From an uncultured delta proteobacterium (lineage in GTDB: Bacteria > Myxococcota > Myxococcia > Myxococcales > Anaeromyxobacteraceae): a DNA stretch of 64,000 bases. This document shows, in pieces, positions 39,101-45,100 of the stretch; within the stretch, counting starts at the first letter, position 1; each line of letters starts with the position of its first letter. Location of the stretch: the NCBI GenBank assembly GCA_963828255.1, contig CAWHDZ010000011.1, positions 160,001-224,000 on the forward strand, in the 5' to 3' direction. Made by a program: the position numbers.

Positions 39101-42100
39101 CGCTCTGGACCTTCACCCTCGAGGGCCGGGGATTCCTCCGGGCCCAGGTGCGCCACCTGGTCGGCACGGCCGTCGCCGTCGGACTCGGCCTCTCCCCGGT
39201 CTCCCGGATCGCGGAGATCCTCCGGGACCGGGAGCGATATCGGGGAGTCCGGGCTCCGGCCTGGGGGCTCACCCTGATCGGCGTGAGCTACCCCCCGGGA
39301 GACTCACCCCCATCAGGGTGAGGTGGCGACGTCGTTCCCGACCTCGTTGTCGCCGTACTTCATGAGCAGGTCGGAGACCGCCTCGCGGAGGTAGTCCGAC
39401 TGGCGGATCCGCGTCGCCCGTGCCAGGCGGCGAAGCCTGGCGGCCAGCTCGGGCGGGAGCCGGACGAGCATCGGCTCGAGGCGGGTGGCGGAGCCCCCCA
39501 TGAGGGGCATCTGGTGAATCGTCCGGGGGATCTCGATGGGTCGCATGTAGGTTCTTGCCTCCCTGTGACTACGTTTGCCTACACGCTACCACCCGATAGC
39601 CTGAAGTCAAAAAATCCCCAATTGACAATTTCTGGAATCAGGGAGAGGTGGGCGGGGAGCCGCCGTCCACCTCGTTCAGCCGCCCCGACCGGAACGGCTC
39701 GAGGTCCAGCGCGGCCAGCGCGAAGCCGGCCCTCCGCACGGCGAGCGCCACCCCGGCGCGGCAAGCGAAGGCCCGATCCATCTCCTCCGCCGCGATCTCC
39801 ACCCTCCCGATGAGTCCGTGATCGCGCACGCGGAACTGCCGGAGACCGAGCGCGCGCACGCCCGCCTCGGCCGCCTCGATGCGGGCCAGCCGCTCGGGGG
39901 TCACGGGGGTACCGTGCGGGATGCGCGAGGCCAGGCAGGCCATCTGCGGCTTGTCCCAGGTGGGCAGCCCGTAGGCCTCGCTCCAGGCCCGGACCTCGTC
40001 CTTGGTGAGCCCCGCGTCGGCGAGCGGCGAGATCACCCGGTGCTCGCCCGCGGCCCGCTGTCCCGGGCGGTGGTCGCCCCGGTCGTCGGCGTTGAAGCCG
40101 TCGAGCACGGCGACGAGCCCGAGCCGCGCGCAGGACTCTTCGCAGATCCGGTAGAGCTCGCTCTTGCAGAAGTAGCAGCGCTCCGGGGTGTTCTCCCGGT
40201 AGCGCGGGTCGTCCACCTCGCGGCTCTCGACCTCGATGTGGCGCGCGCCGATCCGCCTGGCCAGCGCCCGGGCCTCCTCGCGCTCCGCGCCGGGCACGCT
40301 GGGCGAATGGGCGGTGAGCCCGACGGCCCGGTCGCCCAGGACCTCGCGGGCCACGGCGAGCACCAGCGTGGAGTCCACCCCGCCCGAGAACGCGACCAGC
40401 ACGCCCCCGACGGCGCGCACGGCGTCTCGCATCCCGTCGAAGCGTCCACGGGACCGGTCGCGCAACCGCGCCCGGTCCTCCTGCGTTGCGGTCATGCGCG
40501 GATCCTACCCGCGCCGCCCCTTCGCCGCCTTCTTCACCTTGGCGGGCGCCGCCGCGGGCTTCTTCGCCGGCTTGGCCGCCTTCGCCGGCTTGGCCGCCTT
40601 GGCCGCCTTCGCCTTGGGCGGGGGGACGGCCTTCGGGGGCTTGGCTCCGCCCTTGCGCGGGCGCAGCCCTCCGGTGAGCAACGCGAACTCGGCGGGGGTG
40701 ACGTACTTCATGTCCACGAGCTTCTGGAAGAGCCGCCCGAGGGCCGCGTCGGGCTTCTCCTGGTCGGTCCGGACGACCAGCTCGGCGTGGACCGGAGGCT
40801 CGTACGGGTCGTCGATCCCGGCCACGTTGGTGATCTCGTGCGCGAGCGCCTTGCGGTACATGCCCTCGGTGTCGCGGGCGATGAGCGTGTCCATGGGCGC
40901 GTCGACGAAGACCTCGACGAAGCGGCGCACCTCCTTGCGCACCGTGTCGCGGGCCTCGCGGAAGGGGGAGAGCGACGCCACCACCACCACGGCGCCGTGC
41001 CGGACCAGCATGCGGGAGATGGTGCCGAAACGTCGGACCGCGGTGTCACGGTCCTCCTTGGTCACGCCCAGGCCGCGGGTGAAGAGCTCGTTCGGCGCGT
41101 CGCCGTCCATCACCTCGGCTGGCCGGCCGGCCGCGACGAAGCGCTTCGAGAGCTGGAGGGCGAGCGTGGACTTGCCCGCTCCCGCCATGCCCGTGAGCCA
41201 GATGACGAACCCCGTCCCGTGCTGCTGATCCATGCTCCCTCCCAGGTTCACTCGGCGCGAATGGCGCAATATACCGGAAGCCCGCGGAAAATGCGTCGGC
41301 TCCGATGGGGGCGATTTCGCTCTGGGTGCGCCCCGCTCGACGCGCCATGCCGGCGGGGTCAGAGGTCGGCGACCGGCGAGAAGCCCGAATCAGTCCACCT
41401 AAATACCCGTACTTCCATCACTTTACCTGCATCGAGGCCGAGCACGATCTGATCGGCCCCGGGCAGCGCCGGGCCGTTCCCCACGACCGCGCCGGCGAGA
41501 TCCGAGGCCGAGAGCCGCGCCGGACCGTCCACGTGCGAGTGGAAGACGGCCGCGATCCGCCCGCCCTCCCTGCGGAGACGCCGGGAAAGGGCGAGGTGCG
41601 CGGCGGGATCGGCCTCGAAGGCCTGCCCACCCTCCCGGGCCACGTTCCGGACCGGGACCACCTCGAGCTTCCCGGAGGCTCCCTCCACGACGAAGCCGCA
41701 GACCTCGCTCCGCGGGTCGGCCTCGGCCAGGGAGGAGAGCCGGGTGGCGACGGGCGAATAGTCGGTCACGCTGGGGCCCGGCCCGGGACGCCGTCAGGGG
41801 GCGAGGCCGGCGGCGAGCGGCCCGGCGCAGGCGCAGCCCGGCTGCCGCGCCGTGGCCCGCACGAGGGGCGTGCCCCGGAAGACCTCGATGCGGCGCGCCC
41901 GCGGCTCCTGCGACGCCCCTGTGAGGAGGAGGATCAGCTCCAGCGCGGCGAGGGACCCCATCGTCGCCCCTCCCTCGGCGGTGGGTGCGCCCCCCAGCCC
42001 GGGCCTGGTGGCGCAGGAGTAGCAGGGCGACCCGACCGGCACCGACGTCACCGCGCCGCCCTGCCCGTCCACGTCGGCCACCACGTGCGGGAGCTGGAGC

Positions 42101-45100
42101 AGTCGCGCCTCGTCGGCGATGGCCCGGGAGACGTCGGGCGACGAGCCGCAGACGAGGAGCGCCGTGGGGCGCGACCCGGGGCGGAAGAGGTCGGCGGTGA
42201 CGAGGCCGCTGGCCCAGCGGGCGAACCCGGCCAGCGCCGCGCCCCGTGGACGCCCGAGGTCGTCCGGTCCGAGCGCGAAGCCCGCGCCGGCCTCCGGCTT
42301 CACCTCGTCGGGGTCGTCGAACCAGAGCGTCCCGACCCCCGCCGCGGCCAGGTAGTAGGTGGCCGGCGCCACCGCGAGCCCCCCGCCGGTCACGCGGATG
42401 CGGGCCTCGCGCAGCGCCTCCTGCGCCGCCTCTCCCATTCCCGGGAGCAGGAGCTGCCTCGCGTAGCGCGCCACCTCCGCATCGGTCAGGGCCATGTCCG
42501 TGCCTCCGCCGGAGCTCCGCGCTCGAGCCACACCCGCCACGTTCCACTTCCCTCCTCGGGCGCCGCCTCGAGCCGGACCACCCGGTGGCCGTCCTCCTCG
42601 GCGCTGCGCGGGACGTTCTCGCGCGGCTCCCCGTCGCGGAGCAGGACCTCGAGGACCTCCCCCTCGGCGATGCGCGAGAGGGCGATGCGGGCCTTCACCC
42701 AGGTGACCGGGCAGGTGTGGGCCCGGACGTCGAGGCGCGCCGAGGGGACCCGGGCGCTCATGCCGGCCCCTGGGTCGAGGCGGCCACGGCGCTGCAGGCC
42801 GGGCAGCCCGCGCGGATGCGGAGGGGCACCAGGCGCGACCGGCCGGAGCGGGCCTCGAAGGCCACGAGCCGACCTGCGTAGGCGCCCCGCTCGCCGGCCA
42901 GGAGGCGCAGGGCCTCGGCCCCCATCAGCGCACCGGCGAATCCGGCCAGGGCCCCCAGCACCCCGGCCTGGGCGCAGGTGGGCACCGTACCCTCGGCCGG
43001 CGGCGCCTCGAAGAGGCAGCGGAGGCAGCCGGTCTTGCCGGGCATGACGGTGAGGAACTGGGCGGTGTAGCGGAGCACGGCGCCGTGGACCAGCGGCCGC
43101 CGGGCGGCGAGCGCCACGTCGTTGGCCAGGAAGCGGGTGGCGAAGTTGTCGGAGGCGTCCACGACCACGTCGCAGCCGCGCACGAGGTCCTCGGCGCAGT
43201 CGGGGCCGAAGCGCAGGTCCCGCCCCTCGACCCTCACCTCGGGATGGAGCAACGAGATGCGCGCCGCCGCGACCGGCGCCTTGCGCTTCCCCAGGTCGGC
43301 GTCGCCGAAGAGGGGCTGCCGGTTCAGGTTGGAGAGCTCGACCTCGTCCTCGTCGAGGAGGACGAGCCTCCCGACCCCTCCCGCGGCGAGCGCCAGCGCG
43401 GCCGGGCCGCCCAGGCCTCCCGCTCCGATGACCAGCACGCTCGCGCCCGACAGCTTCACGGCCATCCGGACCTTCTAACCTAGAATGAGAGGACGTGCCC
43501 CTGGCCGGCGGTGCGCCACTGGTCGGGGAGGCTGCGGACCGCGTCCAGGTGCGGGCGGGCCGCATCCGGGTCGATCCCGGCCAGCCGGAGCTCGGTGCCG
43601 CAGGCCACGACCTCCACCCCCAGGTCGCGCCTCCCGTCCTCGACCATCTGGCGGAGCGAGCCCACCAGCGAGGCCTCCGGCGCCGCCGGGCAGCCCTCGT
43701 CGAAGCGCCCCTCCACCCAGGCGCGCAGCGGCTCCCCGGAGAGGGCGATCGACACCCGGTGGCCGAATGCGGCCGCCGTGAGCGCGACCGAGGCGGCGCG
43801 CCGGCGCGCGTCCCAGCCGGCGCCTCCGAGCAGGATGAGGCAAGGCTTGCCCATGTCGTCCTCCTCTGCTAGAAACCGACCCGCTTTCAACGCCCAGGTG
43901 GTGAAACTGGTAGACACACCATCTTGAGGGGGTGGCGCCGTAAGGCGTGCGAGTTCGAATCTCGCCCTGGGCACCAGTCATCGCGCCGAAGAGGAAGGGA
44001 CCCGTCGCCGGGTCCCTTTTTCGTTTCCGGGGGCGCGAGGCCCCCAGGTCACTTCGCCGGGGCGGGCGCGGGTGCGGCCGGCGCGCCCTGGACGGGCAGC
44101 GCGGGAGCCGACTGCAGCGGGGCCGACTGCACGGGGGCCGGCGCGGTGGGCGCCGGGGCCTCCTTGACCACCGACCCGGAGCGGGTCGAGAGGTAGGAGA
44201 GCGAGAGGGAGGTGAGCATGAAGACCGCCGCCGAGGCGGAGGTCACCTTGCCGAGGAAGGTCTGCGCCCCGCGCCCTCCGAAGACGGCCTGCGTGCTGCC
44301 GCCGAAGGCTCCGCCAAGCCCGCTGCCCTTTCCGGCCTGGAGCAGGATGACGATGACGAGGACGGCCGAGACGATGACGTGGAGGACGATGAGAAAGGTG
44401 TTCAACGGATGGCTCCCTGGATGATCCCTGTGAAGTCTACTGCCTTGAGGCTGGCTCCGCCCACCAGCGCGCCGTCGACGTCGGGCTGCGACAGGAGCTC
44501 GGCTGCGTTGTCGGGCTTGACCGACCCGCCGTAGAGGATGCGGACGGAGTCGGCGACGCCCTGGGCCAGCTCCCGGAGGATGGCGCGGATGGCGGCGTGG
44601 ACCTCCTGCGCCTGGGCCGAGGTGGCGGTCTTCCCGGTTCCGATGGCCCAGACCGGCTCGTAGGCCACGGTCAGGCTGCCCACCTGGGCCGGGGTGAGGC
44701 CGGAGAGCGCGGCGCGGACCTGCCGGCCCACCACCTCGAGGGTGCGGCTCGACTCGCGCTCGGGCAGGGTCTCGCCCACGCAGACGACGGGGTGCAGGCC
44801 GGCGGCCAGCGCCGCCCGGGTCTTCTTCTGGACCGCCTCGTCGGTGTCCCCGAAGAACTGGCGCCTCTCGCTGTGGCCGCAGAGGACGTACCGGCACCCG
44901 GCGTCGACGAGCATGGGGGCGGACACCTCGCCGGTGAAGGCCCCCTGAGACTCCCAGTGAAGGTTCTGCGCCGCGAGCCCGATGCGCGATCCGGCCAGCT
45001 CGGCGGCGACCGCGAAGAGCGCCGTGAACGGCGGCGCCACGGCCACGTCCACGCGGTCGGCCAGCGGCTCGGCGGCCGCGCGGAGCTCGCGCACCAGCGC

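Follow-up and report, generated by a model that had tools for sequence, protein, structure and literature searches.

The gene cluster around larE appears to hold two modules left from one ancestral sulfur operon, a relay with a split E1-like enzyme and a kinase-larE pair on its own promoter. We give this reading a probability of about 55%. The window, the whole analysed stretch of DNA, is 64,000 nucleotides long, and eight ORFs lie within 39313..43854 of it, all on the minus strand (Table 1). The initial annotation had listed their order correctly (124-aa ORF, ThiF, TusA, ThiF, JAB, CysC-like kinase, LarE, RHH), but had called larE the sixth gene when it is the seventh in that same list. The intergenic gaps are 14, -4, -10, 24, 125, 9 and 91 bp from the DsrE-like ORF to the RHH gene. 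The distance from larBC also held, as larB-larC sit on other contigs. The genome is 99.2% complete with 6.6% contamination. The RHH protein is probably not part of the functional unit because inserted genes separate it from larE in many relatives. The DsrE-like ORF has no Pfam or NCBIfam match. Its best ESM Atlas cluster is DsrE-like (score 0.94; PF02635 on 22% of the cluster members), and it is present in 8 of 40 loci of the order.

Table 1. Features of the larE cluster, with positions in the window.
Feature	Position	Strand	Basis
DsrE-like protein, 124 aa, possible sulfur carrier	43480..43854	-	ESM Atlas cluster; at this place only in family f1
ThiF_A, active half of E1-like adenylyltransferase, without N-terminal arginine-finger helix	42758..43465	-	PF00899 E 7e-64, profile positions 17-230
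TusA/SirA persulfide carrier	42486..42761	-	PF01206 E 2e-17
ThiF_B, inactive E1 half with arginine-finger helix and Zn cysteines	41794..42495	-	PF00899 E 1e-12
JAB/JAMM metalloprotease, HSH-x7-S-x2-D motif intact	41359..41769	-	PF14464 E 2e-12
Putative -10 box TATATT, internal promoter for kinase-larE	41268..41273	-	sequence
Degenerate APS-kinase paralogue, 242 aa, Lys/Ala-rich basic tail	40505..41233	-	PF01583 E 1e-44; TIGR00455 167.9 bits
LarE, [4Fe-4S]-type sulfur insertase, nickel-pincer synthesis	39638..40495	-	TIGR00268 298 bits
Ribbon-helix-helix protein	39313..39546	-	PF12651 E 3e-15

Judged from the residue patterns observed, the two ThiF genes are complementary halves, with the active site on one and the arginine finger on the other. 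In ThiF_A, an in-frame stop lies four codons 5' of the ATG. Its G-loop, N46/R49/Q50, K62, D103/D106, C164 and four Zn cysteines (C224 in at least 90%) are conserved in a 28-row alignment. Of 30 ThiF_A sequences, 28 had a matched G-loop and were kept; among them, the finger motif occurs in none, SNLxRQ in 27 and the catalytic Cys pattern in 25. On the other hand, R13 of ThiF_B aligns to R14 of MoeB (1JW9), and L3, R10, R13, Q25, G53, C158, C161, L182 and C221 are invariant in 22 rows. The arginine finger is found in 28 of 30 ThiF_B sequences; among these 28, SNLxRQ is never seen and the G-loop pattern once. Both halves occur together, in the same 30 of the 40 loci. In genus g22 they have decayed together (L058) or are missing together (L056). 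In-frame fusions join the carrier to ThiF_B (L039), ThiF_B to JAB (L059, also P0034) and ThiF_A to TusA (L043). The complementary pair had gone unnoticed in the earlier description of this locus.

Structure modelling points the same way. The modelled complex of ThiF_A with ThiF_B scores 0.94 against 0.00 for the best of three controls, a result that may reflect likeness to the solved MoeB/ThiF homodimers. The mark used for this score was reached by 116 of 157 solved pairs and by 2 of 215 mismatched pairs. Between runs, at least 96% of the contacts are shared, the partner pLDDT is at least 88, and residues 9-14 of ThiF_B sit in the modelled interface. It is likely that the pair forms a two-gene, eukaryote-like heterodimeric E1 in Myxococcales, and it would then be a two-gene bacterial analogue of the SUMO and NEDD8 E1s. 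Bacterial MoeB, ThiF and Cap2 are described in the literature as homodimers. One active adenylation domain with an inactive arginine-finger partner is likewise found in the heterodimeric eukaryotic E1s (SAE1-SAE2, NAE1-UBA3), in bacterial BilD (PMC10557695) and in yeast Tcd1-Tcd2 (PMC13139853). However, BilD is a single chain acting with an E2 in phage defence, whereas two genes are used here and none of the called neighbours of the locus is an E2 (no search aimed at E2 families was made). SAE and NAE carry CYS and UFD domains and have E2s, while ThiF_A and ThiF_B are both ThiF-sized; Tcd1-Tcd2 modifies tRNA, whereas the present pair lies in a sulfur relay. ThiF_A might also work alone, because the arginine finger of MoeB/ThiF was reported to be non-essential (PMC13139853) and the single ThiF of the outgroup locus L102 has neither finger motif nor partner. 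Another complete MoeB-rhodanese encoded in this genome could act on ThiS and MoaD as well, which makes any substrate assigned to the split E1 here tentative.

The relay is what remains of an operon of the known CysO/CysM/JAB type. The same neighbourhood of carrier, E1 without rhodanese, SirA/TusA, JAB, cysteine synthase and APS kinase is seen in Ubl operons 4c/4e of Iyer, Burroughs and Aravind 2006 (PMC1779556) and in the mycobacterial CysO/CysM/Mec/MoeZ system (PMC3227635). Of these parts, the locus has the E1, the JAB and the persulfide carrier. It differs from these systems in that ATP sulfurylase and PAPS or sulfite reductase are missing, the E1 comes in two genes, the kinase has degenerated, larE has been added, and the carrier and the synthases are gone. 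The ubiquitin-like relay that had been assigned to the operon is without its ubiquitin-like member: no Gly-Gly carrier or cysteine synthase is present at this locus, and the CysO-type carrier of the relatives has no match in this genome. Over the 40 loci, the carrier was found in 19, cysteine synthase in 10, TusA in 23 and JAB in 25, with the JAB motif intact in 24 of 25 relatives. A MoaD-MoaE fusion was matched in 45 of 46 genomes of the family, and JAMM proteases cleave fusions of this type. The ancestral form, a ThiS/MoaD-like carrier with the full gene set of the Ubl operons, occurs in L099, L102, L119, L120, families f7 and f8 and part of f6. L102, from another class, shares this backbone, and its last gene codes for a 560-aa ATP sulfurylase plus APS kinase with intact motifs; larE was not found within 6 kb downstream. 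In the sister-order loci L099, L119 and L120, a single complete ThiF carries the finger (across a frameshift in L120), and a half-degenerate kinase that retains the catalytic Lys is followed by larE.

The kinase looks like a relic of the Sat-APSK gene that is intact in the outgroup copy of the operon. It passes the TIGR00455 cut-off of 138.7 bits, and its model has the APSK fold (pLDDT 91.8, TM 0.86 to 5CB8). With residues numbered as in Mtb and mapped by motif rather than by direct alignment, the ATP site of its clade (Lys456, Ser457, Asp478, Arg559) is kept in 62-63 of 63 rows, and the P-loop Lys, Ser524 and Arg559 each in 63. The APS site is different. The kinase of this locus keeps 2 of 6 APS-site residues; of Arg483, Arg497, Phe492 and Phe576 it retains Arg497 alone, with catalytic Asp480 kept and Lys562 replaced by Glu. 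In the clade, retention is 1/63 for Arg483, 51/63 for Arg497, 0/63 for Phe492, 26/63 for Phe576, 38/63 for Asp480 and 5/63 for Lys562. Second-copy CysC proteins keep Arg483, Phe492 and Lys562 in 16 of 16, as well as Arg497 and Phe576. The Lys/Ala-rich tail is nearly always present in the clade. CysC (PMC4373884) thus shares fold, P-loop, Mg-binding Asp, lid Arg and Ser524 with the present kinase, which stands alone and has lost Arg483, Phe492 and Lys562, and often Asp480 and Phe576. No ATP sulfurylase of either type (Sat or CysD) was found in the genome, which has no match to PF01507, PF01747 or PF13469 (PF00685 was not among the families searched), so the reported lack of ATP sulfurylase and PAPS reductase was borne out. 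The kinase cannot perform sulfate activation here because no source of APS was found and the APS site is lost. An APS-kinase function, as first assigned, is unlikely from these residues. It is very improbable that the cluster is a plain sulfate-assimilation operon with a working APS kinase of unusual active site: the TIGR00455 match, the fold and the description of an operon type including APS kinase would fit, but genomes with a second, intact CysC retain both copies, and PF01507 (this family only) is likewise not found in three of five other near-complete genomes. Another known system close to this kinase is the APSK-like domain of fungal ATP sulfurylase (1M8P/1I2D), which has a regulatory, non-catalytic role.

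The kinase and larE look like their own unit with a putative separate promoter, because a conserved -10 box precedes the kinase and family f5 has the relay and kinase-larE at different loci. Upstream of the kinase, 24 of 40 loci have a match of 5/6 or better to TATAAT (shuffle mean 6.7, maximum 13); before the other seven genes tested, only 0 to 2 loci do. The motif is compatible with read-through from the relay genes. Of 133 listed kinases, 122 are followed by larE on the same strand at a distance of at most 5 kb (121 at most 1.5 kb), and the pair stays conserved over the order despite a changed chromosomal context. The kinase-larE link is thus stronger than the initial annotation had stated, while its counts (23 of 29 larE loci with the kinase, 13 with JAB or ThiF, 54 and 76 genomes with JAB near TusA or ThiF) were not reproduced as such. 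These 122 adjacencies exceed what a shared promoter strictly needs. The kinase could belong to the pincer pathway, either by regulating LarE in an ATP-dependent manner or by binding or phosphorylating an intermediate that carries adenine (NaAD, or a dinucleotide pincer, for example NPAD). We consider this rather unlikely. Kinase, larC and larE are each found in 145-146 of 151 genomes, the pair is intact in f4 and f5 despite different other neighbours, and translational coupling is suggested by the short distance here (9 bp) and by an overlap of 14 bp in L099. In G003, which has no kinase match, the only larE is a weaker one that belongs to a larE-larB-larC cluster; Arg497 and the ATP site are retained, and an adenine-dinucleotide pincer is known (cited in PMC13524815). 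However, of the 63 rows of the clade, 58 have lost the catalytic Lys, 25 the base Asp and all 63 the adenine-stacking Phe492. Furthermore, G011 (98% complete) has the kinase but no larC, larE or LarA match, the two genes are apart in G017, and LarE retains its mononucleotide-phosphate residues. The earlier suggestion of a kinase acting on the adenylated cofactor is weakened by the lost Phe and Lys and by G011.

The larC gene was found by PF01969, and the adjoining larB was named from its sequence. LarA (PF09861) has no match in this genome and, as had been noted, none in 9 of 9 genomes of the genus, yet it was matched in 130 of 151 genomes of the order. Two aldo-keto reductases are encoded. 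The ornithine-cyclodeaminase match, which also speaks against a pincer-pathway kinase, lies after a PLP enzyme, and we take the two to resemble an sbnA-sbnB pair rather than a pincer user. Strong matches to aminotransferase class V, the family of cysteine desulfurases, are present.

LarE itself is ordinary in its motifs. It passes the TIGR00268 cut-off of 150 bits, and the cysteines reported earlier in CYFC and CLAS (C107, C110, C187) are invariant, with S190, R222 and R224, in 22 of 22 aligned orthologues. SGGxDS, CXXC-C and the equivalents of Ser180, Arg212 and Arg214 are present, as in the [4Fe-4S] type (residue roles and definition in PMC9283937). The PP-loop, CXXC-C motif and substrate-phosphate residues of Thermotoga maritima LarE and of TtuA are all conserved. 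In Thermotoga, the desulfurase genes are far from larE, whereas the present larE lies behind an ex-APS kinase and a relay cluster. LarE of this type could in principle take sulfur from a carrier. A protein thiocarboxylate made by the relay (on the CysO-like carrier in relatives, on MoaD/ThiS here) may then give sulfur to the open iron of the LarE cluster, as TtuB does to TtuA. This is doubtful. The mechanism was compared to TtuA/TtuB in PMC9283937, the relay genes lie 5' of the kinase in 31 of 40 loci (including L056, with carrier and JAB only), many f6 and f1 genomes that have lost both cysteine synthases still keep the relay enzymes, and an unrelated full-length ThiF lies 1.1 kb before larE in G029. 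However, no TtuB-like carrier is encoded at the locus, and the dedicated carrier (E 1e-12) was matched in 106 of 151 genomes and 3 of 13 in f4, whereas larE passes its cut-off in 145 of 151. Besides, no finger-less ThiF_A beside ThiF_B was found among the f4 loci inspected (23 of 30, 1.5 kb flanks), f5 keeps the modules apart, and IscS with cysteine was enough for Thermotoga LarE in vitro (PMC9283937). In line with the caution that ThiF, JAB and TusA could serve other sulfur paths, the relay has a known cysteine-synthesis job via the CysO-type carrier. With that job, the carrier not found, the -10 box in between and the separation in f5, one coupled operon feeding LarE is not supported. Improbable as well is a complete system in which the heterodimeric E1 thiocarboxylates the carrier, the carrier feeds LarE and the repurposed kinase modifies or senses an adenine-bearing pincer intermediate.

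Gene orders, residue patterns and the conservation of the promoter motif are observed, and the heterodimer is modelled. For the preferred reading of two separate modules, we infer the order of events, the activities, the substrates and the sulfur source as follows. The ancestral operon would have comprised an Rrf2 regulator, cysteine synthase, ThiF, TusA (sister order), a CysO-like carrier, a second cysteine synthase, JAB, Usp and Sat-APS kinase. In Myxococcales, the homodimeric ThiF of the thiocarboxylate relay would have been duplicated and then split. ThiF_A would bind ATP and adenylate the C-terminal Gly-Gly of the carrier, and ThiF_B would contribute the second half of the dimer together with the arginine-finger helix that ThiF_A lacks at its N-terminus. 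TusA, with the DsrE-like protein, would hand sulfur from a cysteine desulfurase on to the activated carrier, and JAB would trim the carrier precursor or release cysteine. Where carrier and cysteine synthases are still present, cysteine would be made by the CysO/CysM/Mec route. For the enzymes that remain in this genome, the most likely role is to act in trans, either on ThiS or on MoaD that JAB could cut from MoaD-MoaE. The second module would be transcribed from its own promoter. Its kinase would be the orphaned APSK domain of Sat-APSK, which would have given up the phosphorylation of APS and taken on a new role as an ATP-binding protein that carries a basic tail. LarE on the kinase promoter would be an ordinary [4Fe-4S] enzyme whose sulfur most likely comes, like that of the Thermotoga enzyme, from a cysteine desulfurase.

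Should ThiF_A and ThiF_B prove to be an obligate heterodimer, they would be an independent bacterial case of the homodimer-to-heterodimer step behind the SUMO and NEDD8 E1s. The likely ancestral state with a single ThiF gene is still visible in the sister order, and the ThiF proteins are small and easily expressed. The kinase is probably misannotated, although it clears the curated CysC threshold in nearly all of the sampled Myxococcales, and it would have a conserved new job. With this cluster, it can also be tested directly whether any LarE receives its sulfur from a protein thiocarboxylate. Finally, another pincer user is indicated in this genus because it keeps larB, larC and larE without a LarA match.

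The cluster is real across the order. Its best reading is a decayed form of a known sulfur operon together with a kinase-larE unit, rather than a dedicated source of sulfur for the nickel-pincer cofactor. Its eight ORFs encode, in order, a 124-aa ORF, ThiF, TusA, a second ThiF, JAB, an APS-kinase-like (CysC-like) protein, LarE, and an RHH protein, separated by 14, –4, –10, 24, 125, 9, and 91 bp. Neither Pfam nor NCBIfam matches the 124-aa ORF, whose language-model features resemble those of DsrE proteins (score 0.94). The database names of close homologues are from Anaeromyxobacteraceae and Myxococcaceae. 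The larB and larC genes lie elsewhere in the genome, away from kinase-larE. Profile searches of this genome (99.2% complete) gave no match to PAPS reductase/CysD, ATP sulfurylase, one sulfotransferase family, or LarA, which agrees with the initial annotation on the absence of ATP sulfurylase and PAPS reductase. The papers cited below are drawn on in excerpt.

Positions of the cluster and of features in the window and in relatives (plain numbers count along the window; L, fetched locus; G, genome of the order; C, contig; P, protein of a relative)
Feature	Position	Strand	Remark
Eight-ORF cluster	43854 to 39313	minus	
tRNA-Leu(GAG)	43892–43976	plus	directly upstream of the cluster, divergent; variable genes there in relatives
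TTGACT-16-TAGCGT	39583–39610	minus	upstream of the RHH gene
201-aa ORF	37843–38448	minus	between truA and clpX; no Pfam/NCBIfam match; kept in many order loci
Carrier joined to ThiF_B	L039:8060-9031		G055, genus g5; in frame via Gly-Gly
ThiF_B-JAB fusion	L059:8383-9378		
ThiF_B-JAB fusion	P0034		
ThiF_A-TusA fusion	L043:8832-9716		
Second cluster, same genus	L080 (G067:C21)		carrier, complete ThiF, intact CysC
Locus with full-length ThiF of a different type	L131 (C458:2149-5814)		G029; 1.1 kb upstream of larE
Separate larB-larC-larE clusters	L117 (G106:C1), L118 (G137:C126), L112 (G003:C62)		besides or replacing the kinase-linked larE
LarA-like protein	G146:C1:6806612-6807154		example
larC, identical scores	G000:C4:3657-4781 and C37:11822-12946		probably assembly overlap or contamination

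Among 151 genomes of the order, the kinase and larC were each matched in 146, and larE scored above its cut-off in 145. The N-terminal domain of LarA was matched in 130, but in none of the nine genomes of the window's genus. A conserved LarA-like protein, encoded order-wide by open frames of some 540 aa (PF09861, positions about 18–199), is likely the user of the pincer in most Myxococcales. When the 133 listed kinase positions were compared with the listed larE positions, larE was downstream within 5 kb in 122 and within 1.5 kb in 121, and the order-wide pairing of kinase and larE proposed at the outset was thereby upheld. Six of the eight non-adjacent cases are at contig ends; the genome G017 has a true separation, and G029 probably has one. 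No larE was listed for three positions, including that of G011 (98% complete, 20 contigs). Part of the adjacency is plain synteny: related genomes are not independent samples, and housekeeping neighbours such as truA and clpX stay in place in many loci as well. In families f4 and f5, however, the pair is intact amid different neighbours. In G029, the kinase is on another contig than larE; for the full-length ThiF beside that larE, no counterpart was seen in L116, the larE locus of G017 from the same genus.

The two ThiF proteins differ in what they have kept. The first, ThiF_A, starts just before the G-loop, and a stop codon is found four codons upstream. Its alignment comprised 28 of 30 rows, two being dropped because the G-loop pattern was unmatched. 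The N-terminal RYxRQ helix is present in none of these 28 orthologues, which do keep the residues for ATP, zinc, and catalysis. In the second, ThiF_B, the active site is lost and the helix is retained in 28 of 30; what does not vary is the RYxRQ helix, the zinc cysteines, and interface positions. Arg13 of ThiF_B aligns with Arg14 of MoeB, described as the arginine finger (excerpt of PMC13139853). Both genes occur in the same 30 loci, and they decay or vanish jointly in genus g22. The ThiF_A/ThiF_B complex model scored 0.94 against 0.00 for the best control, with at least 96% of contacts agreeing between runs and a partner pLDDT of at least 88; the mark applied is reached by 116 of 157 solved pairs and 2 of 215 mismatched pairs. 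Since MoeB and ThiF dimers have already been solved, this pass may show likeness, not binding. The pair is probably a two-gene heterodimeric E1. Two points speak against this: MoeB and ThiF reportedly do not need their arginine finger (PMC13139853, in part), and its motif was not seen in the single ThiF of L102, a locus from another class. For the heterodimeric E1, SAE1-SAE2 and NAE1-UBA3 are known parallels (excerpt of PMC12355090), as are Tcd1-Tcd2 in yeast (excerpt of PMC13139853) and, in bacteria, BilD, which is however single-chain (excerpt of PMC10557695). Bacterial MoeB and ThiF are described as homodimers in the excerpts of PMC12355090 and PMC10557695. The operon ThiF as the only E1 of the genome was rejected; a complete MoeB-rhodanese is also encoded.

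Up to 17.5 kb around the kinase was taken from 40 of the 146 genomes; these represent eight families. The longest form of the operon reads cysteine synthase, ThiF_A, TusA, ubiquitin-like carrier, ThiF_B, cysteine synthase, JAB, kinase, and larE. Over the 40 loci, larE was found in 36, each ThiF in 30, JAB in 25, TusA in 23, the carrier in 19, cysteine synthase in 10, and the DsrE-like gene in 8. This fuller operon corresponds to types 4c/4e in Iyer et al. 2006 (PMC1779556, in part) and to the CysO/CysM/Mec pathway (PMC3227635, in part). In loci with cysteine synthases, the carrier mostly ends in Gly-Gly plus one residue, and JAB would trim this extra residue. Carrier and cysteine synthases are gone from the window locus. 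No CysO-type carrier was matched in this genome, where the sole ThiS-family matches are a ThiS adjoining thiG and a MoaD-MoaE fusion. An ordinary job for JAB is suggested by three points: JAMM proteases cut MoaD-MoaE fusions (excerpt of PMC8832034), the fusion was matched in 45 of 46 family genomes, and no other strong JAB match than the operon JAB was found here. All 46 of these genomes also gave some JAB match. Some relatives carry the fused genes listed in the table. In other g5 genomes, carrier matches likewise lie within long open frames, and a JAB-cleavable carrier-E1 precursor is possible in this genus.

The kinase scores above the TIGR00455 cut-off and has a fold like that of APS kinase. 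Residue roles were taken from the mycobacterial CysC structure (excerpt of PMC4373884) and mapped by motif onto 63 distinct operon-type kinases and 16 second-copy matches from the same order. The ATP side is retained (P-loop Lys in 63, Asp478 in 62, Ser524 in 63, Arg559 in 63). On the APS side, Arg483 is present in 1, Phe492 in 0, Lys562 in 5, Asp480 in 38, Phe576 in 26, and Arg497 in 51. At most four of these six residues occur together in an operon-type kinase and two in the window protein, compared with all six in each of the 16 second copies. An unrooted tree, drawn with midpoint rooting, places the two groups on opposite sides of a branch with 100/100 support. Judged by its residues, the window kinase is probably not an APS kinase. 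Its decay looks stepwise, since Lys562 is still present in sister-order kinases. In 38 of 40 loci, the core is followed by a tail rich in Lys, Ala, and Arg; the tail of L049 is short, and that of L054 is cut by the contig end. We infer from long-term selection on the kinase some new ATP-dependent or scaffold role. A role in making O-phosphoserine for CysM was dropped, because 30 of 40 loci keep the kinase and have no cysteine synthase.

A scan of positions 38000–45500 of the window found neither promoter nor terminator. A loose TA-N3-T motif upstream of the kinase occurred in 18 of 40 loci, not above shuffles (mean 20.4). A stricter TATAAT test, chosen post hoc after inspection of those sequences and controlled with seven other genes, found a box (at least 5/6 match) 20–160 bases before the kinase match in 24 of 40 loci, against a shuffle mean of 6.7 and maximum of 13; before each of the seven other genes it was found in 0 to 2 loci. 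TTGTCA precedes the box in many f6 loci. In family f5, the relay without kinase (L145-L147) and kinase-larE (L052, L053) are at different loci. Therefore, the DsrE-to-JAB genes and kinase-larE are separable modules, and transcription may read through from the former into the latter. RNA-library contigs aligned to the relative locus L066 cannot show co-transcription or rank genes. In three runs from two studies, a kinase-only contig ends 44–69 bases upstream of the kinase start, a weak hint that was given no weight. By eye, the element upstream of the RHH gene is a possible own promoter; it is below the scan threshold and not enriched in relatives.

By its sequence, the larE product is an ordinary LarE, with the CXXC-C and substrate-phosphate residues invariant in 22 of 22 proteins; the analysis included an alignment with the Lactobacillus protein. 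A Thermotoga LarE of this type is catalytic when supplied with IscS and cysteine, and its mechanism has been compared with that of TtuA, an enzyme able to use TtuB, a thiocarboxylate carrier (both from an excerpt of PMC9283937); an adenine-dinucleotide pincer, NPAD (Desguin 2025), is cited in an excerpt of PMC13524815. Feeding of LarE by a protein carrier is chemically reasonable, but larE is retained in genomes where the carrier was not found. The carrier-based sulfur supply for the pincer suggested in the initial annotation is not the best reading.

The outgroup loci suggest an order of events. L102 holds Rrf2, cysteine synthase, ThiF, carrier, cysteine synthase, JAB, and Usp, and after these a 560-aa ATP sulfurylase-APS kinase whose motifs are intact; the next gene is unrelated, not larE. 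Three sister-order loci (L099, L119, L120) share this backbone; each has a single complete ThiF and, ahead of larE, a kinase that lacks the sulfurylase domain. Two more loci of the sister order are cut by contig ends. In the remaining phylum loci inspected, the kinase is intact and larE is not nearby. On the basis of the one outgroup locus, the kinase would be an orphaned APSK domain which larE joined afterwards.

A literature search covering few subscription journals gave no paper on the cluster under bacterial heterodimeric ThiF/MoeB, the Myxococcus locus, or myxobacterial pincer genes; the locus may be among the operons in the supplement of Iyer et al. 2006 (PMC1779556, in part). Worth following are the ThiF pair, as a probable two-gene heterodimeric E1, and the former APS kinase, which is probably misannotated.
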